Shown here: one piece after another, positions 354-53,873 of the stretch
How the letters are laid out: each line of letters starts with the position of its first letter
How positions within the stretch are numbered: position 1 is the stretch's first letter
Assembly: GCA_965203555.1 (NCBI GenBank)
Contig: CBDBCY010000004.1
Span: 1,216,001-1,280,000, forward strand
Reading direction: 5' to 3'
Length of the DNA stretch: 64,000 nucleotides
Source: Acidimicrobiia bacterium
GTDB taxonomy: Bacteria > Actinomycetota > Acidimicrobiia > Spongiisociales > ZC4RG35
Made by a program: the position numbers and the translations under genes
Notes under the pieces: model-generated
The model's database searches: none
Seen by the model: the letters and a program-made list of their open reading frames with translations, nothing else
Told to the model about the DNA's origin: nothing

Positions 354-484
354 CGGCCCCGTGGTATCCGCAACCGGGCGACTCCGCTGATGGTCCACTC
401 GCGAAATCATCAAACCGGCGAACCCGCAGATTGTCACACATGACAGTTATAGTCCCAGATGACCACCATAGGGGAGGAGCACTG

Positions 485-3569: not shown

Positions 3570-5135
3570 TCATCTTCGCAGCACCCGCCCGGGCCGGGTC
3601 CCAGTGAGGCTACCCGACCGCAACACCGGTTCGCCGTTGACCAGAACGTGCACCATGCCTTCGGCCAGGACATTCGGCTCGTACCTGGTCGCCTTCTCGC
3701 GAAACCCTGCCGGGTCGAACACCGCGATGTCGGCGAAGGCGCCCGGTTTCAATACGCCGCGGTCACGAAGTCCGAGGCGCTGCGCCGGAAGACCGGACAT
3801 CCGGTATGCCGCTTCGCCCGGTGTCAAGACTCCCTCCCGGTTGACGGAGAAGTTGTAGAAGTAAGAAGCCCATGTGTATGCGCCGTGGAAAGTCTTACCG
3901 GCAAGAGGACCGTCCGGCGCCATGGTGGTGGCGTCGGAGGCCGGCATCGACAGCGGGTGCGCGAAAGCCGTGCGGTGTTGAGCGGCGCTGTGACAGTCGA
4001 TCAGGACCATGAGCGACTCCATCGTCTCGATCGCTCCGAGCAGCAGGTCGTAGATGCAGTCCAGGCCCTCCTGTCCCCGCTCGTCGGCAATCGATCTGAT
4101 GGATCGTCGGCCGTAGTCGGGGTAAGCGTCGTGGTCGAGCAGTACTATGCGCTCCCAGTCGCCGCCCGCGCTGAGAATGCTGCGGAAACCTTTCATGCGC
4201 CGGCGTGCGTCGGCGTCCTCCAGCACGGAGGCGAGTCCATCGAGGCCGTTAGCCATGGCCCATGGCGGGAGCACCGAATAGAGGTAGGTGAACCCGAACA
4301 GGCGGGTATGCAGATCGAAAGCGACATCCAGGTCGCTGTGGTGAGCCTCATCGACCAACTCCAGGCACTGTTCCATGTCCGCATCGCCACTGCGGGGAAC
4401 CAGGTGGGACACCTGCAGTCTCACCCCCGCTGCCCTGGCGGTCCTGATGGCCTCGGCCACCCCTTCGGGCGCCCCGGCGTCCCGGTACCTGGCATGGCAG
4501 ACGTAAAGGTCATCCCGTTCAACCAGCGGCGCGCAGAGCCTGGTGACCTCCGACTCGGAAGCGCCGGCCTCGGTTGCATATTCCAGGCCGGTCGACAGCC
4601 CCCAGGCGCCCTCATCGAGTGCGGTCCGCAGGAGTTGGGCCATCTGGTTCAGTTCCTCTTCTGTCGATGGTCGATCTGTGAGACCCACGACGGCCAGGCG
4701 AAGCTGACCATGGGGGACCATGCTCACCACGTTCAAAGCCGGCGCCGCCTGCTCGAGTCGGGAGAAGTAACCCGAAGCCGAGTCCCAATCCAGATCGACG
4801 GAATCGGAGTATCCGTAGATCGCCTTCAAAGCGAGTTCCCGGTCTCTGATGGGAAAGCACCCGTGGCCACAGTTACCCACGACCTCGGTGGTGACTCCCT
4901 GGTAGATGGCGCTGACTGCCCGTGGATCCGCCAGAAGGGTGTAGTCGGAGTGACTGTGGATGTCGATGAATCCCGGAGTGACGAGCAATCCGGTTGCGTC
5001 CAGTTCCTCACCTTGACTTGAAGCCAGGTTCCCCACGGCAGCGATGCGTTTACCCACAATGCCTACATCGGCCGGTTCGGGCTCGGCGCCGGTGCCGTCC
5101 GCTATGGCGCCGCCACGGATCAAAAGGTCGAACAT
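3570..5135 (-). CDS. N-acyl-D-amino acid deacylase family amidohydrolase
   Basis: PGFIDIHSHSD, QGVTTEVVGNCG, GLSTGLEY, LGLRDRG.L.PG..ADIAVFDP. Confidence 0.9.
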   Translation of the reverse strand: MFDLLIRGGAIADGTGAEPEPADVGIVGKRIAAVGNLASSQGEELDATGLLVTPGFIDIHSHSDYTLLADPRAVSAIYQGVTTEVVGNCGHGCFPIRDRELALKAIYGYSDSVDLDWDSASGYFSRLEQAAPALNVVSMVPHGQLRLAVVGLTDRPSTEEELNQMAQLLRTALDEGAWGLSTGLEYATEAGASESEVTRLCAPLVERDDLYVCHARYRDAGAPEGVAEAIRTARAAGVRLQVSHLVPRSGDADMEQCLELVDEAHHSDLDVAFDLHTRLFGFTYLYSVLPPWAMANGLDGLASVLEDADARRRMKGFRSILSAGGDWERIVLLDHDAYPDYGRRSIRSIADERGQEGLDCIYDLLLGAIETMESLMVLIDCHSAAQHRTAFAHPLSMPASDATTMAPDGPLAGKTFHGAYTWASYFYNFSVNREGVLTPGEAAYRMSGLPAQRLGLRDRGVLKPGAFADIAVFDPAGFREKATRYEPNVLAEGMVHVLVNGEPVLRSGSLTGTRPGRVLRR

Positions 5136-5229
5136 GAGCCGGCTATTCCATTCGAGTCAAGCTCTCAGCCCGGCCTGGAGGATGGGTGGACAGGGTGTGA
5201 AAAGTCGACACCGGGCGGCGGCAAAAGGT

Positions 5230-5457
5230 GACGGTAAAGGGTTGCCTTTTGTCCCACTCCCGGTGCATATTGAATTCTGTCACGAAAACACCTCCCGGCC
5301 CGTTCCGACGTCACCGCGGCCGCCATACTTCCACGGAGGTCATATATCTGTCGAAGAGGGCGACTCCCGGCGGACCGGCGAAGCGCGCGCTCCGACCCTT
5401 GGCGGTGGTGGCGGGGGTGGGCCCGAAGGGGAGAAAGCGCTAGACGTTTTTCGCGAG
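5230..5457 (+). ncRNA. Candidate structured non-coding element, copy A (with -35 TTGCCT/-10 CATATT promoter-like motif)
   Basis: Colinear similarity to reverse complement of 26059-26281; ACCTCC/GGAGGT and CGGCC/GGCCG pairings; no credible ORF. Confidence 0.45.
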
Positions 5458-5645
5458 ACAGGAGTAGGTCTTCGCGACTTGGGGAGGATCCACCGTTCTC
5501 GCCTACCCGCGTTCCTCTTGACAACCTGTATCCCCGCCCTGCCATCAGCGTAGATGGCACAAGTCCGATGCCGGGAAAGGAGAAAAAATATGCGTCACCC
5601 CCTGACCAGAGCAGGGATGCTTCACTACCATGACAGGTGATATGT

Positions 5646-24355: not shown

Positions 24356-25990
24356 TCAGGCGGACCGGGCTTGGGCGGCTAAGAGTTTGCGGTTGAGTTT
24401 GCCGGTTGAGGTCTTGGGCAGGTTTTCCACGTATTCGACCATCCGGGGGTACTTGTAGGCCGCCAGTTGGGTCTTGACCTGGGCCTGGAGTTCCTGGGTC
24501 AGTTCATCTCCCGCCCGATGCCCGTCGGCCAGCACCACCATCGCCTTGACCACATGGCCCCTGATCTGATCGGGAGCAGGGATGACGGCCACTTCTGCGA
24601 CTGCAGGATGGCGGACCAGGGACTCCTCGACCTCGGCAGGGCCGATGCGATAACCGGCGCTGGCGATCATGTCGTCGTCGCGACCCAGGAAGCGGATGTA
24701 GCCGCTGGCGTCCAGGGTGGCCTGGTCGCCGGTCATGATCCAACCGTCTCGGCGCATGCCCGCAGTTGCCGCCGGGTTGCCCCAGTACTCGAGCATCTGG
24801 GTGGGATCGCCCGGCCGCACCGCTATCTCGCCGATCTCGCCCGGGCGGATCTCCTCTCCACTCTCGTCCAAGAGGGCCACCTCTCGGCCCGGGTAGGGCA
24901 GTCCCATCCATCCGGGCTGGCCGGGCCACAGGGCCTCGCATCCACCCACCAGGTGGTTGACCTCGGTGAGCCCGTAGAACTCGTTGATGACCGCTCCCAG
25001 GTCCCGTTCGCTCCACCGGTGCAACTCGTCGGCCACCGACTCTCCCCCGCTGGCTATCACGCGGAGATCGAGGTCGAAGCGAGGACCGGGGTCGGGCACC
25101 TGCGCCATCACCTTGAGGGCGGTGGGGGTCAAGAAGGCATGGGTGACGCCGTTTCGACCGATGACCTCGAAGGCCCGCTCGGCGGAGAAGCGCTCCTCGT
25201 CGGCAACAACCGGGCGGCCGAAGACGAGAGCCGGAAGCAGTATATCGAGGAGTCCTCCCACCCACGCCCAGTCGGACGGGGTGTAGAACACGGTGGACTC
25301 GTCGAACTCCACGTTGAAGAACAGCTTGAAAGTGAGGAGGTACCCCTCGAGGATCCGGTGAGCATGGAGAGCGCCCTTGGGATGGCCGGTGCTTCCCGAC
25401 GTGTAGAGCAGCAGCGCCGGATCCTCCGACCACGTGTCGACCGGGTCGAAGTCGGACGGGTAGCCGTCGGCCTCGGACAGCGACCGCTCCCCCTCTCCGG
25501 GCTGTCCCGAGATGACCACCGTACCCAGAGCCGGCAGATCAGCGCGGACCGATCGGATCGGGTCGGCGTAAGGCTCCCCCACCACGATGACGCCGGTCGC
25601 CGAATCGGACAGGATGTGCCGGTAAGAGTCGGGACCGTACAGAATCGACATGGGAAGGGCGACAGCGCCGACTGAATAGACCGCCAGATGGAGAGCTGCC
25701 AACTCGGCGCCCTGCTGCATCACCAGCGAGACGCGGTCACCGGGCTGTACTCCCAAAGACACCAGGAAATTGGCGTAACGCTTGGCCAGTCTGATCAGGC
25801 GCCAGTAGGACCAGGTGTCCCGGCGCCCATCGCAGTGTTCAACATAGATGGCGACCCGGCCACGATCGTCGCTCCAGCGGTCGAAGACCTCCGAGGCCAT
25901 GTTCATCCGTTCGGGGATGTCCCACTCGAAGCCTTCCACCAGCGCCCGGTAGCCGCCGAAACCGAGCAGGTCTGTATCTGCAATTCGCAT
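24356..25990 (-). CDS. AMP-binding acyl-CoA synthetase (medium-chain/acetate-CoA ligase family)
   Basis: YTSGSTGHPKG, YGLTE, TGD, GRDDD, YRIGP.EVE, LPKTSTGK. Confidence 0.92.
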   Translation of the reverse strand: MRIADTDLLGFGGYRALVEGFEWDIPERMNMASEVFDRWSDDRGRVAIYVEHCDGRRDTWSYWRLIRLAKRYANFLVSLGVQPGDRVSLVMQQGAELAALHLAVYSVGAVALPMSILYGPDSYRHILSDSATGVIVVGEPYADPIRSVRADLPALGTVVISGQPGEGERSLSEADGYPSDFDPVDTWSEDPALLLYTSGSTGHPKGALHAHRILEGYLLTFKLFFNVEFDESTVFYTPSDWAWVGGLLDILLPALVFGRPVVADEERFSAERAFEVIGRNGVTHAFLTPTALKVMAQVPDPGPRFDLDLRVIASGGESVADELHRWSERDLGAVINEFYGLTEVNHLVGGCEALWPGQPGWMGLPYPGREVALLDESGEEIRPGEIGEIAVRPGDPTQMLEYWGNPAATAGMRRDGWIMTGDQATLDASGYIRFLGRDDDMIASAGYRIGPAEVEESLVRHPAVAEVAVIPAPDQIRGHVVKAMVVLADGHRAGDELTQELQAQVKTQLAAYKYPRMVEYVENLPKTSTGKLNRKLLAAQARSA

Positions 25991-26058
25991 TAGGGCGATT
26001 CTAGAGAGCCGGCGGGTACCGTTTACCGAGCGGAAACCCGCGAAAATCACCCTCTAAA

Positions 26059-26281
26059 TCGCGAAAATCCGGGACGCTTTTGCCGCTGGGCCCACCCCCC
26101 GCCGCCACCACCAGGAGAGGGACGCGCTCGGGTTGTCGGCCAGAAGACGCGTTCCGTAGACATATGACCTCTCTCGCAGAATGGATCCTGCACGGCCCGA
26201 GCGACGCCGGAAGGGACCGGGAGGTGTTTCGACTAAATCCAATATGCACGGGCGCCGTGACGAAGTCAACACTTCACCGCC
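26059..26281 (-). ncRNA. Candidate structured non-coding element, copy B (with -35 TTGACT-N17-CATATT promoter-like motif)
   Basis: Colinear similarity to 5230-5457; ACCTC/GAGGT and CGGTCC/GGGCCG pairings. Confidence 0.45.
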
Positions 26282-26356
26282 GTCTTTTTTCGCGCTTTTC
26301 CACAGGAACGTATATGCGCCGACTCCATGGGCTCCGTTCGTTGAGGTCGACCGCCC

Positions 26357-27265
26357 TCAAGGTCGCGGACGAGAGCGGGAAATGCAGCGGAATCCGATGT
26401 GGCTGGTGGATGTGTCAACGGTCTGGGGCTGGCGGGCAGCGGGACGGTATCGGAAGCAGTACTGGATAGTGCACAGGTGCGATCCTCCTTTGATCACGCC
26501 AGTCGGCAGGGAATCGTCGGAGGCGGGCTGCGGGGCGCAGCAGGGCAACGCCGACGCTTCGACTGAAGGATGCCGGTAGGGATCGCAGGTCCATTCCCAC
26601 ACGTTGCCGGCCATGTCGTGGAGGCCGTAACCGTTGGGTGGGTAGGCGCCGACCGGGCTGGTGTACGTCCATCCGTCCAACTCGGTGTTCTCATAAGGGA
26701 ACCGGCCTTGCCAGGTGTTGGCCAGGGGCGCTTCTTCCTGTGGGTCGTCATCACCCCAGGTGAACTCGGCGCCGTCCAGCCCGCCCCGGGCGGCGTACTC
26801 CCACTCGGCTTCGGTGGGCAACTGCATACCGGCCCAGTGTGCGTAGGCCTCCGCGTCCGGGTAGGCGACATGCACAACCGGATGGTTGTCGAGACCGTCC
26901 AGGGATGATCCCGGTCCGCGGGGATGGCGCCAGTCGGCGTCCGGGGTCCAGGCCCACCAGCGCCAGAACTCCCCCAGGTTCACCGGCCCGGGTGTCATCC
27001 GGAAGACAAGCGATCCGGGAACCAGGTCCTCGGGTTGGACGTCCTGGTATACAGCAGGGTCGGGAGGCCGCTCCGCAAGAGTTGGATAACCGGTGGCCTC
27101 GACGAACCGCCGGAACTGGCGGTTGGTGACCGGGTGAGTATCAACCGTGAACGGCTCGACCGTTACGGTTCGAACGGGGCTCTCTTCGGGATAGTGGTGA
27201 TCCGACCCCATCGAGAACTCACCGCCCGGGAGCCGGACCTGCCGATGATCGGGCGAAGTTATCAT
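26357..27265 (-). CDS. Formylglycine-generating enzyme (SUMF1 family)
   Basis: LPTEAEWEYAARGG, NGYGLHDMAGNVWEW, KGGSHLC...YC.RYRPAAR, GFRC. Confidence 0.92.
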   Translation of the reverse strand: MITSPDHRQVRLPGGEFSMGSDHHYPEESPVRTVTVEPFTVDTHPVTNRQFRRFVEATGYPTLAERPPDPAVYQDVQPEDLVPGSLVFRMTPGPVNLGEFWRWWAWTPDADWRHPRGPGSSLDGLDNHPVVHVAYPDAEAYAHWAGMQLPTEAEWEYAARGGLDGAEFTWGDDDPQEEAPLANTWQGRFPYENTELDGWTYTSPVGAYPPNGYGLHDMAGNVWEWTCDPYRHPSVEASALPCCAPQPASDDSLPTGVIKGGSHLCTIQYCFRYRPAARQPQTVDTSTSHIGFRCISRSRPRP

Positions 27266-38699: not shown

Positions 38700-38976
38700 G
38701 GAGTACAGATAGGACGAGAGGCCGCTCACCGACCGGGGAGAACACCGATAGCCCCCGGAGTCTTCCGCGGGCTGCACCCCACCAACCAATGTCCGTTACT
38801 CGGAGTGGAACTCATCGTTGAGATGACATAGCCGCACAACTTGGAAGTTCGAGTGATATCCGTTGCCCCACGGCGATCCGGGCTTATTGGGAAAGTCATA
38901 CTCTACGGTTCTGCCTCCTCAAAGTCCTCAGTCCGGTGGAGTCCAAAATGACACATGTGTAAGCTATCCTGACCTC

Positions 38977-39894
38977 ATGGTCAGTGATTCTCTTCCAGCA
39001 CCTCCCCAGGGCAGAGAACGAGCCTTGGCCAAGCTGTTGCATAAAGGGGTCGTGTGGGGGGATTCCGCCGAATGGCTGCCCAGACTGCCGTCAAACTCGG
39101 TGGACCTCTTTTTCATGTCCCCTCCATACGCTGATGCCCGTTCTTATGCGCGGATTGCCCCCGAAAAATATGTCGAGTGGTTCTTGCCCTTCGGTGAAGC
39201 CATGCTCAAGGCTGCACGAGAGACCGGCTCCTTCGTCTTGAATATCAAAAACCGGGTGGCAAAAGCCGGTCCCCTCCGGGGCCAGCGCCACCCGTACGTG
39301 TATCAACTTGTACTGGAGTTGCAGAGACTGGGCTGGCGTTGGACCGAGACATACATTTGGCAGAAGCCAAATGCCATTCCCGGTCGGTTCGGACCCCGCA
39401 CCAAGGATGCTTTCGAGTACGTATACCACTTCAGCAAAGGAACAAAGCCCTACTTTGATCTGGACAGCGTGCGAGTCCCTTACAAGGCTGATCCGTCAGA
39501 GATTGCCCGGCGGGTCAAGGACGCCAACGGCCGGCGCAACACTGAAGCCGGGTTTGGCAGAGACCGCGCCCGAACCTACGGTTGTGGCGGCGCCGATCCG
39601 GGAAACGTGATCACGGTTGGTCAGACTTACAATCAGCACAGAGGGCCGGCGGGACTCCACACCGCAGTTATGCCGGAAGGACTGGCGGAGTTCTTCGTCA
39701 AAGCAATGTCTCCACCGGGCGGGGTGGTAATAGACCCATTCGCCGGTTCAGGCACCACCGTAGTTGTGGCGCGGCGCCATGGTCGCCGCTCAGGTGGGAT
39801 CGAATTGCATTCCGGATATGTGCAGGTGGCCCGAAATCGTATCGCGGAGGACCACTACACGGAAGAACAGGGATTGCTCTTTGTCGCTCACTGA
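38977..39894 (+). CDS. Site-specific DNA methyltransferase, beta class (N4-C/N6-A), orphan
   Basis: Motif IV SPPY before motif I DPFAGSGTT; YIWQKPN, H.AVMP. Confidence 0.9.
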   Translation: MVSDSLPAPPQGRERALAKLLHKGVVWGDSAEWLPRLPSNSVDLFFMSPPYADARSYARIAPEKYVEWFLPFGEAMLKAARETGSFVLNIKNRVAKAGPLRGQRHPYVYQLVLELQRLGWRWTETYIWQKPNAIPGRFGPRTKDAFEYVYHFSKGTKPYFDLDSVRVPYKADPSEIARRVKDANGRRNTEAGFGRDRARTYGCGGADPGNVITVGQTYNQHRGPAGLHTAVMPEGLAEFFVKAMSPPGGVVIDPFAGSGTTVVVARRHGRRSGGIELHSGYVQVARNRIAEDHYTEEQGLLFVAH

Positions 39895-39949
39895 TTCGGA
39901 GCGCCGACTGCTCTCGGTAGCGGGTACCACACCCAGTCCGACAATCAGG

Positions 39950-40130
39950 CGCCAAGCGGTGGACTAAGGCTTCGTAGCTCATCCTTTTTTGGGTGTCACA
40001 GATTAACTCCCCTGCCCTGGGCAGGGCTTTCATCGTATAAGTCCGCCATCTGGCGGACGGCTTCGAATTCATCCCGGGAGGGCGTGAAGATTTCGTTAAT
40101 GACCGGCACTTGCACCGGATGAATGGCACG
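39950..40130 (-). pseudogene. Degenerate fragment of CitE-like lyase 3' end
   Basis: AIHPVQVPVINEIFTPSRDEFEA..QGRG then frameshifted DTQKRMSYEALV, matching the C-terminus of 40411-41247. Confidence 0.75.
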
Positions 40131-40410
40131 AGCGGGAGGAGAAACCGCAGCAGTTGCGTAACCTGGGTGGATGCTCTCGGTCCGCTGATCAGGGTTCATC
40201 ACCAGAGGCATGCTCTACAGCCCCGCCCACGCGTTTACGGTCTTCGACGACTTTCTTCGGCACCACTTCTTACGGTGGAACAGCGAAGCGCCGCCTGATT
40301 GCAACCTCAGTCGACCCGCATCCCCAGATAGCAACGTATCGAGCCAGTTCTCACCGAATGGCCGGGACATCCCGGTACGCCGTCCCTCCGTGGGCGACAA
40401 CCCACGTTGA

Positions 40411-41247
40411 TCACTGGTTCAAGCGATTCATGATGCCGCGGGCTCGGCGGACCACCGCTTCGTCGATCATCCTTCCCTGGGAGTCGGTGATCGCCCCCTT
40501 GCCCTCGGCCAAGGCTTGATCGTATCGAGCGACCAGTCGGCGAGATGCTTCAAGTTCGTCCTTTGAAGGCGTGAAAACTTCGTTGATGACCGGTACCTGT
40601 GCCGGGTGGATGGCTGATCGGGACGCGAACCCGGACTGTCGGAGCAGGAGAGTGGACTCTCTCAGTCCTTCCAGATCCCGGATATCGGTCGAAACCGAAC
40701 CGGTCGGACCTGGCAATCCCGCCGCTGCCGCCGCCCACACCAGCCGGGATCGGGCGGATTGCCAGAGCATCGGGTCTGCGTCGGGGTCCACGCCCAAGTC
40801 GGCGCCCAAGTCCTGCTCCCCGATAGCCACTCCAACCACCGAGGGGTGTTCGGCAATAGGAAGAGACTCCCACAAACCTCGAGCGCTTTCGATGAGGGCA
40901 ATCAAACGAAGCGGACCGGGATTTCCTGCTCTTTCGACCCCCCGTGTCACGCCTCCTAACACCGACATTGTGGCTTTCGGCACCACCAAGGTCGAGACCT
41001 TCGTATCCGCGAGAACAGCTAGGTCGGCTTCCATCTCCTCCGGTTCGGAGTTGATGCGAACGGCAAACCTCGCTCCGGCGCTTCCTATTACCGGGATCAT
41101 GTCAGCAAGGATCCGGCGAGCCTCCGCCTTGGCGCTGGGAGCTACTGCGTCCTCCAGATCAAGGATGAGCATGTCCGCCCCCCGTGTCGGCGCTTTGGCC
41201 AGCATGGAAGGCTGGTCGCCGGGAACGTAGAGGTAGCTTCGGATCAT
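40411..41247 (-). CDS. CitE-like CoA-ester lyase (HpcH/HpaI aldolase/citrate lyase family)
   Basis: RSYLYVPG, ILDLEDAVAP..K..AR, ALIESARG, AIHPAQV. Confidence 0.9.
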   Translation of the reverse strand: MIRSYLYVPGDQPSMLAKAPTRGADMLILDLEDAVAPSAKAEARRILADMIPVIGSAGARFAVRINSEPEEMEADLAVLADTKVSTLVVPKATMSVLGGVTRGVERAGNPGPLRLIALIESARGLWESLPIAEHPSVVGVAIGEQDLGADLGVDPDADPMLWQSARSRLVWAAAAAGLPGPTGSVSTDIRDLEGLRESTLLLRQSGFASRSAIHPAQVPVINEVFTPSKDELEASRRLVARYDQALAEGKGAITDSQGRMIDEAVVRRARGIMNRLNQ

Positions 41248-41276
41248 CGCCGGCGGCTTCGGCGAGTGTTTGGAGA

Positions 41277-42524
41277 TCAACCGCCCGGCATAGGATCGAA
41301 GTCCATGCCCAGTTCGGCCTTCCCGAGATGTTCTTCCATCTCCGGCGCCTTGAAAATGATTGCGGTCTGAGCCAGGAGATCCCGGTACATCCGCTCGTAA
41401 GGATTGACAGCCACGATCCCGTGCGCTCCTGCCAGCCGGAAGGACTCCCGCGCCACATCCTCGGTCATCCGCCGGATGTGGTAGAGCGCCATCAGGCTGA
41501 TCCAGGCCCGCCTTTCCTGCGGGTAATGAGGGTCGGATAGTTTGGCGGCCGTGTCGTAGAGCACCGTGGAAGCCGAGCGGACCCAGAAGCTCATTCGCCC
41601 GTAGGTGGACTGCGCCCATCCCACGTCGGCGCGAGTCAAAGGCACGTTTCCCTTGATGGCCACCGCGATCCCGCCCTTGCGCTTTCGCAGATATCCGGCC
41701 ATATAGTCAAGAATCCGGCGGCAATGTCCCAACTGCATTCCGCCGCCGGACAGATTGAGGAGACCAAACGCCATGTGCTGGACCTCTCCCTCATCGTCGG
41801 TGAAGGTGGCCTGAGGCTGGTCCAAGTCGCGCACCAGGGCATACTTCTCGGGCACGAACGCGTCTTTGATTGTTACCGAATTGGTGGCGGTCGCCCTCAG
41901 GCCCATGGCGTTCCAGTCGTCATGGATCGTCATGCCGGGCGTCCCGACCGGAACGAACATCACCAGGAGTCTGCGCCCCACCAACTCGCCGTGCTCATCC
42001 ACCACCGAGGCGATGGTTCCCACATAGGTGGCGCCCGCCGAATTGGTGGCGAACCCCACTCGGCCGTTACCCAGCCACCCCCCTTCAACCCGGCGGAACC
42101 GGGCGCCCACCTTGGTCACATCCAACTCATCGGGGGGCGCGGAGGCGGCGCCACAGAACATCGACTGGTTCTCGGCGCAGTCCCGAAGCAGTGCGGCCAT
42201 GTTGTCGTCCCCGAAGGCGTAGGGTCCGATCAGGTCGAGCGCCGACCAGTGCATGTTGGTGCAGGCGGCGGACACCGGGTCGCCGTAGGCGATCACCTCC
42301 GCCACCTTGGTGCGGGTGGCGATGTTGTGGCCGGGCCCGCCGAACTGGGGGTGGATGGCCATGGAGGGCACGCCAACCGATTTGAGCGCTTCCATGTTCT
42401 CGAAGGGATAACGCGACTCCCGATCATTTCGGGATGCTCTTCCAAAGAAATCCTCTTCGGAAACTACCTTTTCTACGAGTTTTACGTAATCGTGATCAAT
42501 CATGTCAGAAGGGCCGGGGGTCAT
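41277..42524 (-). CDS. Acyl-CoA dehydrogenase family flavoprotein (monooxygenase-like subgroup)
   Basis: YPFEN..L, NMH, GGWLGNG...F.TN, DDWNAMGLRAT.T, ERMYRD. Confidence 0.82.
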   Translation of the reverse strand: MTPGPSDMIDHDYVKLVEKVVSEEDFFGRASRNDRESRYPFENMEALKSVGVPSMAIHPQFGGPGHNIATRTKVAEVIAYGDPVSAACTNMHWSALDLIGPYAFGDDNMAALLRDCAENQSMFCGAASAPPDELDVTKVGARFRRVEGGWLGNGRVGFATNSAGATYVGTIASVVDEHGELVGRRLLVMFVPVGTPGMTIHDDWNAMGLRATATNSVTIKDAFVPEKYALVRDLDQPQATFTDDEGEVQHMAFGLLNLSGGGMQLGHCRRILDYMAGYLRKRKGGIAVAIKGNVPLTRADVGWAQSTYGRMSFWVRSASTVLYDTAAKLSDPHYPQERRAWISLMALYHIRRMTEDVARESFRLAGAHGIVAVNPYERMYRDLLAQTAIIFKAPEMEEHLGKAELGMDFDPMPGG

Positions 42525-42779
42525 ATTTCACCCGGCTAAGCCTAACCCCATCAATCTCGCCCTCTGCAACACCCGGATGAGGAGTCCGTGTTCTGGGTGT
42601 CTTCCTGTCCCGAGACCGTAACCGTTATGCCTACCGGTTCCTTGGTGGGATCTGTCCTCTGTCAAGATCGGCGTCTCGTTGCCAGGTCGGATTTGAGGTA
42701 TGGGGAAAAACCACAAAGAGGCGCCTTCCTACTCGGAATGACTTTTGCTGCATCCCCGGGTTTGTCACACCCCGGGGAT

Positions 42780-43730
42780 ATGGTTGGCCGCGTGGACCTC
42801 AACACACAGTTGCCATCGCGCCGCCCCCTGTTCCGGACAGGCGAAAGCGGGCCGGCCCGCATCGGTTCGCACGTCACGATCAGCACGGACCTAGACCTTC
42901 CGACGGCTTCCTTGACCTATCCTTTGATCATGTGCGGTCGTGCGACCGACGCCTTGAGTCTTCTGCCGACCGGTAGCGTGCAGACGGTCGTGACCTCTCC
43001 TCCGTACTGGTCGTTGCGGGACTACGACGTTTCCCAGCAAATCGGTTGCGATGACGGACTGGGAGAGTACGTCGAGAGCATCGTCACGGCCTTCGACCAG
43101 ATTCGGCGCGTTCTCACTGATGACGGCACCGTCTGGCTCAACGTCGGAGACAGTTACACCTCGGGCAACCGGAAGTACCGCGCCCCGGATCGCAGGAACC
43201 GGGCAAGAGCGATGTCGGTGCGCCCTCCTACTCCGGTTGGACTGAAGCCGAAGGATCTGATCGGCGTTCCGTGGCGGCTTGCCTTCGCTCTCCAGGATGC
43301 CGGGTGGTGGCTGAGGTCCGAAGTGATCTGGTATAAGCCCAATGCGCATCCCGAGTCGGTACGTGACCGGCCCACGAAGGCTCACGAGACTGTGTTTCTG
43401 TTGTCGAAGAATCAGGACTACTTCTACGACGTCTCGGCCGTGACGGGACCGAACGGCCGTCGGCTGCGGACGATGTGGGACATCAATACCGAGCCCAGGT
43501 CTCGGAAGGCGGGGGGGATTGATGACCACCCTGCGGTCATGCCAATGACCCTGGCTCGTCGGTGCATCCGGATCACCAGTCGCCCCGGTGATGTGGTCCT
43601 CGATCCTTACGCCGGGTCCGGGACGACGCTCGTGGCAGCCAGGGAACTCCACAGGAACTGGGTCGGCATCGAACTGAAGCCCGAGTATGTGGATCTTATA
43701 GAACGCAGGATTGCCACGGCAACCACCTGA
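42780..43730 (+). CDS. Site-specific DNA methyltransferase, beta class (N4-C/N6-A), orphan (start uncertain)
   Basis: VTSPPYWSLRDY, LNVGDSY, KPKDLIGVPWRLAFALQ, HPAVMP, LDPYAGSGTT. Confidence 0.92.
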   Translation: MVGRVDLNTQLPSRRPLFRTGESGPARIGSHVTISTDLDLPTASLTYPLIMCGRATDALSLLPTGSVQTVVTSPPYWSLRDYDVSQQIGCDDGLGEYVESIVTAFDQIRRVLTDDGTVWLNVGDSYTSGNRKYRAPDRRNRARAMSVRPPTPVGLKPKDLIGVPWRLAFALQDAGWWLRSEVIWYKPNAHPESVRDRPTKAHETVFLLSKNQDYFYDVSAVTGPNGRRLRTMWDINTEPRSRKAGGIDDHPAVMPMTLARRCIRITSRPGDVVLDPYAGSGTTLVAARELHRNWVGIELKPEYVDLIERRIATATT

Positions 43731-43894
43731 GGACCATCGACGAACTCAAGGACCGAATCGAGTCTCTTTCGCCGATGGCCGTCCGGCTCGTCGCACGTCT
43801 GACCTGCATGGGAACAGACATACCACACCCATAGGGCGAGCCTCTGCGTAAGCCCCTCGGCGAGACGCGAAGATCCTCCGAGGCAGACTCCCGG

Positions 43895-45190
43895 TCAGTT
43901 GAACTGCATCTCTTCGGTGGAGCCCACCAGCGCCAATGTGGAGGCGTTGCCGCCGCTCACGGCTTGCGCCACCCGGTCGAAATAGCCCGCTCCGACCTCG
44001 GCCTGGTGCTTGGTGGCGGTGTAGCCATGAACCTCTGAGGCAAACTCCCGGTTCTGAAGCCTGCTGTAGGCGGCCATGCCTTCGGCGCCGTACGCCCGGG
44101 CCAGGTCAAAGGTGTGGTAGTTGACCGAGTGCCAACCTGCCAGCGTGATGAACTGGAACCTGTATCCCAACTCGGCGAGTTCATTCTGGAATCGAGCGAT
44201 CTCATCGTTGTTGAGATGCTGTCTCCAGTTGAACGACGGCGAGCAATTGTAGGCCAAGAGCTTCCCGGGGAATTCAGCATGGACGGCCTCCGCAAACCGC
44301 GCCGCATCTTGGATGTCCGGTTCGGGGGTCTCGCACCACAGGATATCGGCGAATGGAGCGTAGGTCAGGGCGCGGGCCGTCGCCGCCTCCATGCCGCCTC
44401 GCACCACATGGTATCCCTCGGCAGTTCGCTCCCCGGTGAGGAACCGATGGTCCCGCTCATCGACATCGCTCATCAGCAAGGTGGCGTCCCGGGCGTCGGT
44501 CCGAGCCATCAGAACGGTCGGCACATCCATCACATCGGACGCCAGGCGCGCCGCGGTCAGGGTACGAATGAACTGCGAGGTGGGCACCAGGACCTTGCCG
44601 CCCATGTGTCCGCACTTTTTCTCGGATGCGAGTTGATCCTCGAAATGAACACCTGCGGCGCCGGCCTCGATCATGGACTTCATCAGTTCGTAGCTGTGGA
44701 TAGGACCACCGAAACCCGCCTCCGCGTCGGCGACGATCGGAGCGAACCAGTGGGCGCCGTACTCGCCGTTGAGGTGAGCGATCTGATCAGCGCGCATCAA
44801 AGCACTGTTGATCCGTCTGATCAGGGTCGGCGCACTGTTGGATGGATAGAGGCTCTGGTCGGGATAAGTCTGTCCCGACAGGTTGGCGTCGGCAGCCACC
44901 TGCCAACCGCTCAGGTAGATAGCTTGCAGTCCGGCTTTGACCATCTGCACCGCTTGGGAGCCGGTCAGGGCGCCAAAGGTGCGGACAAAGGGCTCTGTCT
45001 GGAGCAGATTCCACAGCCGTTCGGCTCCGGCCCGGGCAAGGGTGTGTTCGATCTGCAGGGACCCGCGCAGCGCCAACACGTCCTGCGGGGAGTAAGAGCG
45101 CTGTATTCCTTGCCACCGCTCCTCGAAATCCCAGCGGACTTGGAGGTCGCCTACTACAGCGTCAAACCCATTGTGGCCATTAATCGACAT
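43895..45190 (-). CDS. aceA: Isocitrate lyase
   Basis: [39 protein letters not shown]; AGGAGG RBS. Confidence 0.97.
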
Positions 45191-45324
45191 GATGATCATC
45201 CTCCTTTGGCATTGCGGGTTTGGCTGCTTGAACTGCGCGCCGGTAATCGTCACCTTCGGGGTAAAGCCCAGATGATGCAACGACTCTTCGACACATTAAA
45301 GGAAAGTGTGCTCGATTTCAAGTG

Positions 45325-45371
45325 ATAGGAGAAGACCCTAATTTCATATCAGAGCGATAGGCGAAGCTTAT
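45325..45371. promoter_or_regulatory. LysR-type boxes between divergent aceA and lysR
   Basis: ATAG-N7-TTAT (45357-45371) and a related ATAGG...CCTA site (45325-45340) in an AT-rich intergenic region. Confidence 0.45.
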
Positions 45372-45412
45372 ACTTCCACAGTACGGAACATCTTCCACAG
45401 TGCGGGATTGTT

Positions 45413-46360
45413 ATGGAGCTTTCACAACTTGAATCGTTTATCGAGGCGGCCAAATCGGGGAGTTTTCGCGGGGCAGCCCGCGCCTTGTACCTGAGCCAGC
45501 CATCCGTGAGCGGGCGAATCCGGGCCCTCGAGCGGGAATTGCGGACTCCTCTCTTCCATCGCATGGGCCGGGGGGTGAGACTCACTGAAGCCGGGGAAGC
45601 CTTCCGCCCTTTTGTCGAGCAGGCACTTGAGACCATTGATCTGGGCACGCAAGCCGTTCGCAATACCCAGGAGTCCCAGCGGCGGACCATCACCATCGGG
45701 TCGGCCCGGATCATAGGAACCTACATACTCCCCCCCACCCTCGAGCGTTTCCAGCACCGCTTCCCCGGGGTGGCGGCTCGTATCCGCACCGGACGGTCAT
45801 CAGACGTGATAGATATGGTTGCGAACGGAGTGGTGGACATAGGCCTGTCGAGAGGTCTTGACCACCCGGAAGTGTTCTCGATACATCTCTACGACGAACC
45901 GATCGTCCTGGCAACCTATCCCGATCATCCCTTCGCGGAGCGCGGATACGCCTACATCTGGGAGGTGGCCAGACAGCCCCTTATCCTCTACGATCCCAGT
46001 TCCACTTACTTCCTGCTCATCAATCAAGCCTGCCGAGAAGCGGGAATCGTCCCTCAGATCGAGACGATGCTGGACAACATCGAAGCAACCAAGCGCATGG
46101 TGGCTCTGGGGCTGGGTATCTCCTTTCTGCCTCACAGCGCCATCCTCACTGAAATCGAGCAGGGGACTCTTCGACACATCGAGTTGAAGGGTGATCAGCA
46201 TGTGCATCTGCCCACCCACGTCTTGGTGCGACGAGCCCAGCACTACAGTGCACCCCTGCTCGATTTCCTCAGACTCCTGCGAGACATCTATGGGTGCGAC
46301 ATCTCCGAAATCGCGGGGAGCCCGTTAGCTCCTGGGGCGAGTTCGGGCTCGGTCGGCTAA
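45413..46360 (+). CDS. LysR family transcriptional regulator, divergent from aceA
   Basis: GSFRGAARALYLSQPSVS.RI..LE.EL...LF.R..RGV.LTEAG. Confidence 0.95.
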   Translation: MELSQLESFIEAAKSGSFRGAARALYLSQPSVSGRIRALERELRTPLFHRMGRGVRLTEAGEAFRPFVEQALETIDLGTQAVRNTQESQRRTITIGSARIIGTYILPPTLERFQHRFPGVAARIRTGRSSDVIDMVANGVVDIGLSRGLDHPEVFSIHLYDEPIVLATYPDHPFAERGYAYIWEVARQPLILYDPSSTYFLLINQACREAGIVPQIETMLDNIEATKRMVALGLGISFLPHSAILTEIEQGTLRHIELKGDQHVHLPTHVLVRRAQHYSAPLLDFLRLLRDIYGCDISEIAGSPLAPGASSGSVG

Positions 46361-48044
46361 GGCGTGTTCACATCATGCGGGGGGTCGCGGGTGAGGGCGG
46401 GGGTGATGTGGGCGAGGAACGTAAACCAACTGGGAGCGCCGGTTTCTGTCACCAAGCGCTCGGTGGGTCGGGGGTCTTTCGGCAACCGTTTGGTGGACGC
46501 TGCGGAAAAGTTTTAGTGTTTGTTTTCACAACTTAGTGATGTTTTGTCACACCCCCTGTGCATACTGTACACATGAAACAAGCAGTCAACAGCCGGCGGT
46601 CCGCCAACCTGGCCAAGCTCCTGTCACCCTCTCTGCCGGTCGTAGAGGCGTCGGTTGAAGAACTGAAACAGCGAATCCAGTCCACCATCCGCGTCCAGAA
46701 CCAAGTGGCGGCGGTCCGCGCCCAGGCGGTGTCGGAGTTGCGCCGCCGCCAGGGGGCGGAGAAGGTGGAGACGATTTTGCGGGAGGACGGTCTGTTGGGC
46801 CGTCGGAAGGCCCGGTCGGAGGTGGAGACCGCCCGGGGGTTGGAGGAGCTGCCCAAAACCCGGGAAGGGTTACGCAAGGGAGAGATCTCTGCTGACAACG
46901 CGCGTATCCTGGCGGGCGCCAACCAGAGGGGAACCATCGTCGAGGACGAGTTGTTGGACGGGGCCCGTTCCCAGTCTCCTGACAAGTTCGCCCGCATGGT
47001 ACGCAAACACGAACAGGCCCGTGCCCAAGATGATGGTGTGTCGAAGTTGGAGCATCAGCGCTCCCGCCGGTTCGCCAAGCTCACCACCGACCAAGACGAC
47101 GGAATGACCGTCCTTTATGGGCGTTTCGACCCGGTCACCGGCGCCCGGGTCGAAACGGCGGTGTCTCACATGATGAAACAACTATGGCACCAAGAAGACC
47201 CCACCGATCGGGCTACTGCGGGTCAGCGGATGGCCGACGCCATAGCCGAACTGGTCACCCGCCAAGGCAAAGACAAGAACGGTGGTTCCCAGGGCGTGAG
47301 GTTGTTGTTGATCGCCGACTACGACACGGTCAGCCAACAGTTGGGCAACCCTCGCCTCGAGAACGGAACCCCCCTCCCCGCCCAGACCCTGCGCCAGTTG
47401 GCCTGCGACGCTCAGATCCTGCCCGCCATGTTCTCGGGTTCGTCGGTGCCGCTGGATTTGGGACGGGCGCGGCGGACGGCCAGCGGTTCCCAGCGGGCCG
47501 CGCTGGTCGCCCGGGACAAACACTGTGTGGGTTGCGGCGCCAAAGCCTCCTGGTGCCAGGCCCACCACATCGTCCACTGGCAAGACGGGGGTCCCACCAA
47601 CCTGGACAACATGTGTCTTCTGTGCAGCAAATGCCACCACAAAGTCCACGACAATGACTGGCAGGTTGAACGCACTACAACCGGCGCCTACCGGCTCCGC
47701 CCACCACCCACCCAATGGGGACGCCCACCCCGACCTAAGTACCGGAACCGCCGACGCCAACCCACGCGCCGACGCCCGATCAAACAGAGAAAATGACCGA
47801 ACCCGCGTCCTGTCTCTATGGTTCCTGCCGGCCCGTTTTGCCACTCTTGATCCACGCCCATCCCCAATGGGGGTTTCTGGAAGCACTTTGAACACCAGAT
47901 ACAACACCCCGCTAATTGTTTACCGGCTCAAACGCGCATAAACAGCGCGCCACCTCCCAAACCGGGACGGCAACCCCCGCCACCTGCCGCCATCCTCCCG
48001 CCACCACGCCAAACCACCACCCCACCCAAGCGTGAACACGTCTT
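46359..48044 (+). mobile_element. Putative DUF222-HNH element bounded by 13 bp imperfect inverted repeats
   Basis: AAGGCGTGTTCAC (46359-46371) vs GTGAACACGTCTT (48032-48044), 12/13 match; G-rich left and C-rich right subterminal tracts. Confidence 0.45.
46573..47796 (+). CDS. DUF222 domain HNH endonuclease (REP13E12-like)
   Basis: QRMADA, RQLACDA, PLDLGR.RR.A...QR.AL..RD..C.GC, AHHIVHWQDGGPTNLDN..LLC..CH..VH. Confidence 0.9.
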   Translation: MKQAVNSRRSANLAKLLSPSLPVVEASVEELKQRIQSTIRVQNQVAAVRAQAVSELRRRQGAEKVETILREDGLLGRRKARSEVETARGLEELPKTREGLRKGEISADNARILAGANQRGTIVEDELLDGARSQSPDKFARMVRKHEQARAQDDGVSKLEHQRSRRFAKLTTDQDDGMTVLYGRFDPVTGARVETAVSHMMKQLWHQEDPTDRATAGQRMADAIAELVTRQGKDKNGGSQGVRLLLIADYDTVSQQLGNPRLENGTPLPAQTLRQLACDAQILPAMFSGSSVPLDLGRARRTASGSQRAALVARDKHCVGCGAKASWCQAHHIVHWQDGGPTNLDNMCLLCSKCHHKVHDNDWQVERTTTGAYRLRPPPTQWGRPPRPKYRNRRRQPTRRRPIKQRK

Positions 48045-48060
48045 GGTACGCTCTGCCCTG

Positions 48061-48792
48061 ATGTCGAGTTCTCGTGCCGTCGTTACCGGCGCCTCCGGCG
48101 CCATCGGCTCGGCTTGCGTGCGCCTGCTCCACGAACGAGGGTGGGAGATCACCGGCATTGATGTAGCTGAGCCTCCGTCCGATCTCGAATACGTCTCGTG
48201 GCACATGGTCGATGTCCGCGATCGGCAAGCTTTGGGCAAGGTGGCAGAACGATACGGGCCGGTCCAGCTGCTAATCAACGGCGCCGGTTTCGGAGACCGG
48301 GCGCCCGCCGCCGAGATGACCGCACATCAGTGGCAAAGCGTGCTGGATGTCTGCCTGACGGGCACTTTCATGACCTCCCAAGCCTTCTATCCCAACCTGT
48401 GCGAAGCCCAAGGAGCGGTGGTGATGAACATCGCCTCACTGGCCGCGCAACGATCCTGCGCCCTTCACGCCAACTACTGCGCCGCCAAAGCAGGGGTCGA
48501 GTCGCTCACTCAAGTGCTGGCGCTGGAGTGGGCCGCCGACAAGATACGAGTGATAGCGGTGAGCCCGGGTGTGGTGAACACCCCCATCGTCCGCAAGAAC
48601 ATGGCCCCCGGCTCAGAACGAGAAAAAGCCATCATCGGCATGACCCCCCTGGGTCGCCTGTTCGGACCAGACGAACTGGCCCGACTGATCCTGGCATACT
48701 CCTCCGAAGACTTCTACCACGTAACAGGCGCCACCCTGGTAGCCGACGGAGGCTTCGCTACTGCTGGCGGGCTGCCTCAGTTTTATGACTGA
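48061..48792 (+). CDS. Short-chain dehydrogenase/reductase
   Basis: TGASGAIG, NGAG, YCAAK, IRVIAVSPG, DGG. Confidence 0.9.
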   Translation: MSSSRAVVTGASGAIGSACVRLLHERGWEITGIDVAEPPSDLEYVSWHMVDVRDRQALGKVAERYGPVQLLINGAGFGDRAPAAEMTAHQWQSVLDVCLTGTFMTSQAFYPNLCEAQGAVVMNIASLAAQRSCALHANYCAAKAGVESLTQVLALEWAADKIRVIAVSPGVVNTPIVRKNMAPGSEREKAIIGMTPLGRLFGPDELARLILAYSSEDFYHVTGATLVADGGFATAGGLPQFYD

Positions 48793-48835
48793 GGGGCTCA
48801 CCGGAGGCTGCCCTGCCTGTGAACACAGGGCTGGC

Positions 48836-49513
48836 TCAGGGCGAGCAACGCCTTTCAGAAGCGTAACCGGATAGCCTTTCCCAACTTCCGCTGTCCTTCA
48901 TTGTGAAATTGGGGGGCGCCGTGCGGCGGGCAATGGCTACGGCGTTGCAACTCAAACATTTCGCCACGTACCTCATCTCCTGTGGGTCGATGCCCGCCTT
49001 CTGCTCGAAGGGAGTCAGCCGATGTCCCAGTTGCCGCGACTGTTCAGTCAAATAGTCCGGGACCGGGCTGGGGACTCGGGCGGGGGCGGTGTCGGGTGTG
49101 CGCCCGGGAACGCGGATGCGGCGCACCTTTCCCGTCGAGGTTCCCGCCGTTGGACGCCGCTCAGAAGGCTTGGTCCGGGATCTGGCAGGCGATTCCGTGA
49201 GCGCTTCCGACGGCGCCGGCGCCACCGATGAATGCCCGCTCGACTCTACAGGCGCCGCAGTCGGTTGCTCATCCGGCTCTGTGGTGGCCAAGGGCAGAGA
49301 CGGAGGAGCAGGGGCAGGCGCTTCGGTCCTTTTCTGTCCTACTCCGCGACGCAGCCGGGAAAAGACCCTCTTGACCCGCCGACGGTCGGGCCTTTCGGTG
49401 TCTTTTCGGAGGCGTTCCCCTCTTCTTGCCTTCTTCCCGAATGGGAGAATGCCCTGCTCCAATTCCTCGGGGGTGGGGACATCAAAGTCGGGAGTGGCGT
49501 CTCGTCGACTCAT
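48836..49513 (-). CDS. Hypothetical protein: basic/Pro-rich disordered region plus C-terminal putative Zn-binding domain
   Basis: ATGA overlap with Hsp70 gene stop; GH...CLSC...C candidate ligands. Confidence 0.7.
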   Translation of the reverse strand: MSRRDATPDFDVPTPEELEQGILPFGKKARRGERLRKDTERPDRRRVKRVFSRLRRGVGQKRTEAPAPAPPSLPLATTEPDEQPTAAPVESSGHSSVAPAPSEALTESPARSRTKPSERRPTAGTSTGKVRRIRVPGRTPDTAPARVPSPVPDYLTEQSRQLGHRLTPFEQKAGIDPQEMRYVAKCLSCNAVAIARRTAPPNFTMKDSGSWERLSGYASERRCSP

Positions 49514-53800: not shown

Positions 53801-53873
53801 CGCCTGTTTCTCCCCCGGCGACTCTCATCACCCGATCACCCACATGGAAGGTTTTCGACTCCGGTTTTGTCAT
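50844..53873 (-). CDS. SNF2-family helicase, RapA/DrmD-like (start may extend to 53930)
   Basis: ILADEVGLGKTIEAG, DEAH, LLLTATP, STEAGGEGRNFQ, NYDLPWNPMKVEQRIGRLDRIGQ; RapA-like FD..LAL.REDLDF..GH.L; C-terminal coiled coil. Confidence 0.9.
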   Translation of the reverse strand: MTKPESKTFHVGDRVMRVAGGETGVVVGAGSPLGYEVSFATGTLYLDGTALQPVSENPQQALLRNDLGRAEVYGLAIQALYLQHAYRYDDMAGLSSARIEPAFHQVMTALRVLSKTRPRMILADEVGLGKTIEAGMILKELRARQMVERALIVVPPSLQWQWRQELSSKFNEEFQVLDGPLIKSLEKRGENPWRLYDNVICSLNTARRNDRAQQILEAGWDMAIFDEAHKVRRSLPSTKKIVTTQAYRLADELKETVYGLLLLTATPMQLHPFELYSLIELVEPGLFESFEQYEAARQWLPDLTKVAKCLQEWEKVNASDRGETQSFVKIQLPSGEDLDLDRREHRERALEDLSREFPLSRTLVRNRKSEVGGFTKRRPQVVRVEMLPEEIGIYQDVNNYIRDEYDLAQREDRKAVGFVMVSYQKMLASSSNAIRGALLKRIAKLREKLGSPASDWGNNRPTEDDLDDWTDPRELSAVADRYHHETRAGLAEELRAEIDRLEQLVFRLGKIRDSKAREFLRILRDEIEPDQKILVFTQFLDTQTFLKATLESQGYGVEIFNGVMSQEHKDETVRRFRDRSQIMISTEAGGEGRNFQFAHVMFNYDLPWNPMKVEQRIGRLDRIGQKREVVIYNFACQGTVEERILEVLEDRIGLFEESVGPLDPILGDVSKEIERMALSKAGNRREDFQAIASEWEQKVKESRRLEKERRYFALDPSTFRRDHANRLVEKRVMAEFSDLANHVGMTLRYYGGNMTDHEKGGVGIYLSGGLQRRLKRDKRSYRGVFDYRLALEREDLDFFAFGHGLIDAIVSMPLESHSPLACHRRVSGVQGGPYLEVFYALEGEGPARFGVFVRHLVSKNLTVEEEVVTEMPQVGGAWMEGETPEWLGAAFDVSASKIADKRLEADQHVFELQEKWRREELERTERMYTYQKVRLMNRIRDERAWIDEKEKTGTSQERRVLPARRGMLAKNRRRLAGLEEDRRHRVQDIESRASDLSIRLLAAALVVGE

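Follow-up and report, generated by a model that had tools for sequence, protein, structure and literature searches.

A candidate family of multi-copy structured small-RNA genes in Acidimicrobiia-type actinobacteria

We analyzed a 64,000-nt stretch of DNA from an Acidimicrobiia bacterium (assembly GCA_965203555.1, contig CBDBCY010000004.1, positions 1,216,001–1,280,000; hereafter the window), in which a first-pass annotation had pointed to two look-alike intergenic stretches, copies A and B, each described as a promoter followed by a conserved structured RNA. Both copies belong to a family of 22 related units in which promoter-like boxes precede a conserved RNA body. Our best reading is that the unit encodes an RNA of ~190 nt or more, and that the units form a lineage-restricted multi-copy family in uncultured (marine) Acidimicrobiia-type actinobacteria. 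We judge the chances to be about even that each copy is an independently transcribed structured small-RNA gene of a kind new to the catalogues.

A conserved unit repeated within and between genomes

The conserved unit of copy A (winA) spans 5197–5481 (+) and comprises a promoter region, an RNA body and two TTCGCG boxes; nhmmer matched it at 5197–5479, and cmsearch matched its RNA body at 5280–5481 with 145 bits. Copy B (winB) spans 26034–26305 (−), with an nhmmer match at 26305–26036 and a cmsearch match to the RNA body at 26034–26236 (149 bits). Neither search found a further copy in the window, whose G+C content is 58–66%. Aligning 5180–5600 (+) with the reverse complement of 25990–26340 gave a mean column identity of 73%, the copies themselves being 0.72 identical, and the blocks listed in the first-pass annotation all occurred in order: CGGTRAAGKGTTGMCT, GTGCATATTG, AAACACCTCCCGGYCCNTTCCGRCGTC, GAGGTCATAT, AGCGCG, GGTGGTGGCGG, GGGGGTGGGCCC, AAAGCG and TTTTCGCGA. 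The two copies differ in this alignment by indels of 20, 11, 3, 8, 3, 2, 3 nt and so on. The longest, the degenerate 27-nt block AAACACCTCCCGGYCCNTTCCGRCGTC, has exactly two matches in the window, at 5286–5312 (+) and 26203–26229 (−), with 0.00 expected from 100 shuffles of the 64-kb sequence. Taken singly, GGGGGTGGGCCC (3 matches in the window at up to one mismatch, 2.26 expected) and TTTTCGCGA (14 matches in the window, 11.1 expected) were no rarer than chance, so the signal resides in the colinear set of blocks and not in each block. The annotation was right about the colinear blocks and had drawn the unit too short, a second TTCGCG box lying 21 nt further on (5469–5477 in copy A; 26038–26046 in copy B).

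Scanning public genome contigs with the exact 20-mer AACACCTCCCGGNCCNTTCC yielded 45 loci. The other blocks of the unit were present at 18 of these and absent from the remaining 27, which were isolated 20-mer matches lying mostly inside apparent coding sequence. An nhmmer profile built from 20 copies recovered two more that lack the exact 20-mer, in loci L006 and L038, each 3.7 kb from a known copy; a covariance model confirmed both. The family thus has 22 members, of which nine public assemblies contribute 20 and the window 2, with E-values of 1e-20 to 1e-57 (nhmmer, cmsearch), which bears out the proposal that the element is multi-copy. Five of the assemblies are titled Acidimicrobiia bacterium and four only 'bacterium', and the highest number seen in one assembly was five; all copy counts are lower bounds, and the scan hits did not include the genome from which the window comes. 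The conserved unit measures ~290 bp, or ~350 bp in one assembly group, and in 11 copies from one assembly group similarity runs on through TGCGTGGAACCGGCGAGGCC.

The first-pass annotation had recognized no known Rfam family, and a covariance search against Rfam 15 was likewise empty for both copies and their homologues, with 0 matches over the whole window and 0 over 13 homologous loci (122 kb). Relaxing the threshold to E-values up to 10 returned only noise from eukaryotic long non-coding RNAs or unrelated small RNAs (E 2.6–8.1). A plasmid collection held no blastn 'distant' match to copy A and a phage collection none to the copy in L013. Literature searches by topic and by four sequence motifs found no paper on the element, the motif matches being unrelated and primer-like. 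A T-box identity was considered when GGUGGACCGCG was spotted by eye in some copies; it was dropped, as the motif is not conserved and gave no Rfam hit. Because the unit is conserved and recurrent and matches no catalogued RNA family, it probably represents a new small-RNA gene family.

The claim that the element is non-coding also held. Block-to-block distances fall into all three classes modulo 3, which argues against a coding sequence, and at 62–69% G+C the stop-free frames seen on both strands are no surprise. We rejected a protein-coding gene, a coding remnant and a leader peptide, since an ATG follows GGAGGTCAT in copy B only and frames are not conserved. We likewise rejected a leaderless open reading frame (ORF) beginning in the start region, given that copies vary in how many A's precede CACC.

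Reading from its 5' end, the unit opens with an A-rich region that carries a CGCGAAA(A) box in 18 of the 22 copies, 48 or 49 nt or 58–60 nt before the -10-like hexamer; this count comes from one search pattern, which finds no match in winA, L013, L022 and L044. Promoter-like elements follow, in the order -35-like TTGnnn, [T/C]GTC[A/C/T]C, 10–11 nt and the hexamer CA[C/T]A[T/C/G]T. After a further 10–16 nt come the 5' block AACACCUCCCGG, hairpin P1 with its conserved loop UUCCGACGUC, a variable hairpin P2, the block GAGGUCAUAU, and hairpin P3 with an inner hairpin. The 3' part consists of a G-rich block, GGYGGYGGC(GGC)GGGGG(A)UGGGCCC, ~30 variable nt, box D1 (UUUUCGCGA), NNUAG and box D2. In D1, TTCGCG is unchanged in all 21 complete copies; D2 is a second, decaying TTTCGCG box 21–23 nt past D1.

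In copy A, all on the + strand, the 5' block AACACCTCCCGG (5287–5298) holds CACCUCC and overlaps P1 (5296–5322; CGGCC ... GGCCG, loop UUCCGACGUCAC). The block GGAGGTCATAT follows at 5335–5345; its GAGGTCA is unchanged in 22 of 22 copies and lies outside the scan pattern. Folding and the types of arm pairs place P3 at 5350–5396 (base GTCG..GAG / CTC..CGAC, inner CCGG/CCGG). The G-rich block GGCGGTGGTGGCGGGGGTGGGCCC (5401–5424) is complementary to the 5' block and P1 loop, and D1 (TTTTCGCGA, 5448–5456, placed by alignment) is followed after 21 nt by the less conserved D2 (TCTTCGCGA, 5469–5477). Copy B, on the − strand, has an upstream box GCGCGAAAA (26287–26295), inverted relative to D1 and 48 nt before the -10-like hexamer, then P1 (26193–26219; CGGTCC ... 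GGGCCG, with one U.G pair) and a P2 hairpin (26176–26191; GCAG ... CTGC) that is absent from copy A. P2 folds in 16 of 21 copies and is missing from the short-linker copies winA, L011, L022, L044 and L037. Alignment places the GAGGTCATAT block of copy B at 26162–26171, folding and a register search place P3 at 26117–26157, and alignment and long-range pairing place the G-rich block at 26088–26112; a box search located D1 (TTTTCGCGA) at 26059–26067 and D2 (TTTTCGCGG) at 26038–26046.

Where copies from different assemblies have matching gene families on their flanks, the RNA body is 0.75–0.95 identical, the flanking coding DNA 0.76–0.97 and the 90 nt upstream of the body 0.65–0.97. Paralogues within the five-copy assembly are 0.70–0.87 identical. 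Shared positions include one between an FGE-sulfatase gene and a downstream AMP-binding enzyme gene in the same orientation, found in the window (copy B), L019 and L039, and one between an epimerase gene and a convergent SBP_bac_5 gene, found in four assemblies. Since the unit is about as conserved as its flanking genes across genomes and its paralogues have diverged, the family is, as judged from these comparisons, an old and positionally stable one under purifying selection, which argues against a recent mobile burst.

Dispersed repeats of the Correia or ERIC type and 'mobile promoters' are intergenic elements 100–350 bp in length that contain inverted repeats, enclose a promoter and frequently lie between convergent genes, and our unit resembles them in size, dispersal, inverted boxes and internal promoter-like boxes. 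A DNA repeat of this sort, either a mobile promoter or an element like a miniature inverted-repeat transposable element, would have spread as DNA, its hairpins being incidental or a by-product of inverted repeats. Inverted boxes do flank the unit (CGCGAAAA ... TTTTCGCG; upstream box in 18 of 22 copies, D1 in 21 of 21), the copies nearly fill their intergenic gaps, often between convergent genes, and winA, L011 and L022/L044 are 0.80–0.84 identical yet lie beside different genes. The first-pass annotation had named terminal inverted repeats as a sign of such an element; the inverted CGCGAAAA/TTTTCGCG boxes exist, but they are not terminal, as similarity between paralogues extends ~35 nt further upstream and ~45 nt past D2. 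Nor are there near-identical copies within a genome, as the within-genome range of 0.70–0.87 indicates; these old copies keep their positions across assemblies whose flanks are just 76–82% identical, the unit there being as conserved as coding DNA, and their variable segments retain hairpin potential. We therefore consider a dispersed repeat rather unlikely.

Folding of the predicted RNA

The CGGCC/GGCCG stem proposed in the first-pass annotation is real and is kept in copy B with a U.G pair. Across the family this stem, P1 (CGGYC/GRCCG), has 93% of its cells paired and covaries at pair 21:41, the sole P1 column left free by the scan pattern, which is U-A in 15, C-G in 4, U-G in 2 and other or unpaired in 1 of the 22 copies. 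The second pairing that had been proposed, ACCUCC with GGAGGU, is present with 6 bp in copy A and 5 bp in copy B; as neither side ever varies, covariation speaks neither for nor against it.

A long-range helix that the annotation had not seen joins the 5' block and P1 loop to the G-rich block, and was favored by RNAalifold and by many single-sequence folds. It comprises 16 pairs with 96–98% of cells paired. Pair 35:151 is G-C in 13 copies, A-U in 5, G-U in 1, other in 2 and a gap in 1, and pair 24:162 is G-U in 14, G-C in 4 and C-G in 1. None of 500 shuffles reached the covariation score of the helix, and pairing fell to 39–57% when the partner was slid by 1–3 columns; the shuffle controls as a whole, in which 0–2 of 500 shuffles reached the observed score, speak for structure. 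About a quarter of the cells are G.U pairs, so the helix fits only the strand with the promoter-like boxes. P1 and the long-range helix are mutually exclusive, and each has some compensatory support (one or two columns). When each fold was forced, 13 of 21 copies had their lower energy in the long-range fold and 8 in the local fold (P0/P1), with gaps of ~0.3–13 kcal/mol.

Hairpin P3 folded in all 21 copies that were folded (mean z −1.84), with arms that differ by subfamily: CGAAC/GUUCG, GGAAGG/CCUUCC and GUCGAAG/CUUCGAC. Covariance model R1 left P3 unaligned in divergent subfamilies, and we therefore used a register search of our own, which misplaces at least five bulged rows (L003, L010, L014, L027, L037). 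This search revealed flips of arm pairs at x1 (C-G in 13 copies versus G-C in 6) and y1 (C-G in 12 versus G-C in 6). The clearly compensated columns are thus 21:41 and 35:151, together with the P3 arm flips, some of the alignments having been fitted to structure. Overall, these comparisons lend moderate support to a conserved RNA structure.

Promoter-like region and TCGCGA boxes

Promoter-like boxes lie where the first-pass annotation had put them. In copy A, the -35-like hexamer TTGCCT (5242–5247, +) stands 18 nt before the -10-like hexamer CATATT (5266–5271, +), and a TGTCCC box lies between them at 5250–5255 (+), its GTC 10 nt before the hexamer. In copy B, TTGACT (26264–26269, −) stands 17 nt before CATATT (26241–26246, −), the pair scoring 9 of 12 in a consensus scan, and is followed by a CGTCAC box (26257–26262, −) at the position of a -26 element. 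A promoter-like -35/-10 pair occurs in some form upstream of every copy, with TTGnnn 17–18 nt before CAYAYT in 20 of 22. GTC, the A at position 2 of the hexamer and the T at position 6 are unchanged in all 22, and the spacing from GTC to the hexamer is N10 in 19 copies and N11 in 3. Transcription is predicted to start ~7 nt past the CAYAYT hexamer, near 5278 (+) in copy A and 26234 (−) in copy B, from a promoter that would combine a -35-like TTGAC, the unchanged GTC at about -26 and the upstream CGCGAAAA box. The lineage-specific pattern of GTC and hexamer matched all 22 units and 4 other sites in 228 kb, with 2.3 expected by shuffling.

The fixed GTC resembles that of mycobacterial DNA-damage promoters, for which the motif tGTCgg(N10)tA(N3)T, with GTC strictly conserved at -23 to -28, is given for PafBC (PMC8635444, PMC6789036). 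The unit and the PafBC-dependent (RecA-NDp) promoters are alike in an unchanged GTC 13 nt before the A of a NANNNT hexamer. PafBC promoters are described as having no -35 element, whereas the unit has its -35-like TTG in ~20 of 22 copies. The 'gg' of the PafBC motif is not kept in the unit, which has A, C or T followed by C (AC) at these positions, and three copies have the N11 spacing. A PafBC-type -26 element in the promoter of the unit is a lead, not a result.

Two promoters of protein genes in the window, at 432–453 and 46545–46566, share the layout of box, GTC and hexamer. The second (+) reads TGTCAC-N10-CATACT and ends 6 nt before the ATG of a gene for a protein with DUF222 and HNH endonuclease domains (ORF 46573–47796), and is thus laid out for a leaderless transcript. 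With a GCGGAAAA box placed 58 nt upstream of the hexamer, this promoter has the same architecture as the RNA units. Damage induction of the mycobacterial DUF222/HNH '13E12' genes found no support in the literature, a search on 13E12 with PafBC returning 0 papers. The first lies within 400–453 (+), where TCGCGAAAT precedes TGTCAC-N10-TATAGT, ~30 nt before a Shine-Dalgarno-led 87-aa ORF (485–748) with no Pfam family. This ORF overlaps a 133-aa ORF (738–1139) that has a sub-threshold match to a gag-type aspartyl protease.

The TCGCGA-containing boxes are themselves arrayed in places. Locus L037 has three tandem TTTTCG(C/G)G...TAG boxes ~22 nt apart (~4828–4900, −), and in L003 a pair of CTCGCGAAAAAC boxes lies upstream at an interval of 21 nt (~4895–4945, +), the second at -70; both look like arrays of binding sites. 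A hairpin between D1 and D2 through the palindromic TCGCGA was rejected because D2 decays by single transitions without compensation. An antisense promoter served by D1 was also rejected, as the opposite strand has no suitably spaced GTC/hexamer pair.

Such arrays invite the explanation that the unit works as DNA, with proteins binding its blocks: TCGCGA boxes spaced by two helical turns, and a GTC '-26' box that would take a PafBC-like activator. On this view the blocks would control transcription of the neighborhood, and the transcript would be functionless. The two positions of the upstream box, at -48/-49 and -58/-60 from the hexamer, are one helical turn apart; D boxes recur every 21–23 nt, with three in L037, and L003 has two upstream boxes; the promoters at 432–453 and 46545–46566 use the same layout; and D2 lies 39–41 nt before the TAGAAT box of the next gene in winB, L019, L039 and L003. 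Conservation speaks against such a module, being highest in the 200 nt past the hexamer (0.75–0.95) and not in the promoter (0.65–0.97 over the upstream 90 nt), and block spacing within the body varies by up to 15 nt, which suits hairpins better than phased sites. The G.U-rich complementarity is strand-specific, and TTTTCGCGA is not enriched across the window. A purely DNA-level module accordingly seems to us distinctly unlikely.

Gene neighborhood and possible function of the RNA

The first-pass annotation had raised the possibility of a leader for a downstream catabolic gene. This did not hold up: 12 of 21 copies are followed by a convergent gene, so that the unit is not a dedicated leader, and 9 by a gene on the same strand, 38–292 nt past the unit (one of the 22 copies is cut by a contig end and drops out of these counts). 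Genes were called by choosing ORFs on third-position G+C (GC3), with Pfam support for most. The GC3 picker took a spurious + strand ORF (26570–26908) over the FGE-sulfatase gene at 26357–27265 (−; Pfam 3e-80), and calls without Pfam support need care. Neighboring Pfam families are diverse, with no common pathway evident, and include amidohydrolase, ABC binding proteins, acyl-CoA synthetase, hydantoinase B, aminotransferase, RelA/SpoT, FTHFS, an AlkZ-like glycosylase and DUF169. A TAGAAT box stands 7 nt before the start codon of the AMP-binding gene after copy B (25998–26003, −; ATG at 25990) and after the units in L019 and L039, and of the RelA/SpoT gene in L003 (~5225–5241). This suggests that the AMP-binding and RelA/SpoT genes have leaderless promoters of their own, and leaderless mRNAs appear common around the loci, with TAGAAT or CATACT boxes 6–7 nt before start codons.

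Other features near the units stand on their own. A 16-codon ORF (MRHPLTRAGMLHYHDR; 5590–5640, +) with a strong AAAGGAG ribosome-binding site lies past copy A, ahead of the ABC binding-protein gene at 5771, and has a perfect TTGACA nearby at ~5519. In L006 (4269–9637) and L038 (4288–9698), two units 3.7 kb apart bracket genes for a PLP enzyme, an AlkZ-like DNA glycosylase and a protein with a sub-threshold HhH-GPD match, making DNA-repair genes their neighbors. Further along the window, the region 38863–53930, where G+C falls to 58%, holds two N6_N4 DNA methylase genes (38863–39894 and 42588–43730), a gene for an Hsp70-like ATPase (49510–50847) and one for an SNF2-family helicase (50844–53930), and may be a defence or mobile island.

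The two competing folds raise the alternative of a cis-acting leader or attenuator, riboswitch-like, in which the choice of fold decides between stopping at box D1 and reading on into a same-strand gene or into antisense. The 5' block would pair either within P0/P1 or with the G-rich block, whose GGGCCC could pair with a downstream GGGCC before a U-run. We hold this reading to be unlikely. Both pairings keep complementarity, with one or two compensatory columns each, the energies of the forced folds are ~0.3–13 kcal/mol apart, a GGCCC...GGGCC hairpin precedes GUUUUU in one copy group, and nine copies stand upstream of a same-strand gene. The convergent gene that faces the other 12 and the lack of a common pathway among neighbors speak against it. 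In winA, winB, L003, L018, L019, L037 and L039 there is no terminator-like hairpin or a poor one, a terminator scan found 0 sites, and downstream of winB, L019, L039 and L003 the same-strand gene has a TAGAAT box of its own, placed 7 nt ahead of the start codon.

Several results weigh against independently transcribed small-RNA genes. At the 3' end, a consensus scan found 0 intrinsic terminators at copy A, copy B and L013, and a passable hairpin before a U-run occurs in some copies only and is weak. At the promoter, the consensus scan at 9 of 12 positions is passed by copy B and failed by copy A, one of three regions tested passing. The TCGCGA boxes lie outside the presumed RNA and point to a possible role of the DNA itself. 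Because 20 of the 22 copies were selected by an exact 20-mer match, the lack of variation in the 5' block and its CACCUCC arises by construction. Whole-RNA folding energy was no better than that of shuffles (z −0.55 for copy A, +1.96 for copy B), and the covariation signal comes from a small number of columns and of independent changes, with the four C-G / A-U copies forming one subfamily. For P3, the ungapped control was moderate (mean 7.27 of 9 paired versus 6.02 in shuffles), 8 of 22 copies did no better than shuffles, partly because of bulges, and the helices are just 59–72% paired in the model-fitted alignment. Finally, CACCUCC is paired, and so masked, in both predicted folds.

If the units are small-RNA genes, their RNAs would act in trans, most likely through pairing of the 5'-proximal CACCUCC with Shine-Dalgarno regions; this core presumably resembles the 3' end of 16S rRNA. 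CACCUCC may instead be masked by the GGAGGU of the RNA itself, which is followed by an ATG in copy B only, or the RNA may bind a protein. By alternating between its two pairings, the 5' block may gate activity or 3' end formation. Action through CACCUCC, or its masking, gated in this way is inference only. Were the -26 element of PafBC type, the sibling RNAs would respond to DNA damage. One could then imagine stress-induced riboregulators, sibling genes on hybrid PafBC-type promoters within the DNA-damage response, whose CACCUCC, near the 5' end, mimics the anti-Shine-Dalgarno end of 16S rRNA and which, on flipping from masked to open, blanket Shine-Dalgarno sites and shift translation to leaderless mRNAs; we regard this scenario as a long shot.

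Known small RNAs offer partial parallels. The Qrr, LhrC and csRNA families are sibling small-RNA genes of 50–110 nt with their own conserved promoter and factor site, a conserved single-strand motif, clear terminators and known regulators. Our units share with them paralogous genes with a conserved promoter, an upstream site and a conserved motif, but have a much larger RNA body, and a clear terminator was not found. 6S/Ms1 RNAs are rod-like RNAs of ~180–300 nt that bind RNA polymerase, with a closing helix between 5' and 3' ends and conserved promoters, encoded by one- or two-copy genes. Size, long 5'-3' pairing and a conserved promoter link them to the unit, which differs in reaching five copies per assembly and in having no Rfam match; the central bubble is a feature of 6S/Ms1. 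6C RNA (RF01066) of Actinobacteria is a single-copy RNA of <100 nt whose two hairpins have C-rich loops thought to pair with G-rich targets, and it is reportedly linked to the SOS response. The unit is likewise an actinobacterial, C-rich RNA with a possible connection to DNA damage, but is at least 190 nt long, multi-copy and of another architecture, with no Rfam hit even at E-values up to 10.

To our knowledge, the phylum Actinobacteria has no Hfq, and we know of few characterized small RNAs within it. If transcribed, the family described here would bring a class of large, multi-copy structured RNAs to an uncultured and little-studied branch of this phylum. It would offer a compact test case, combining a promoter module (CGCGAAAA box, -35-like hexamer, GTC at -26 and -10 hexamer) with two competing folds and an anti-Shine-Dalgarno-like 5' motif. 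Should it instead be a domesticated repeat, it would be an example of a mobile promoter fixed and conserved like a gene. The family bears on how such bacteria coordinate sibling RNAs, and on whether promoters of the PafBC-style 'sigma adaptation' kind may drive non-coding genes.

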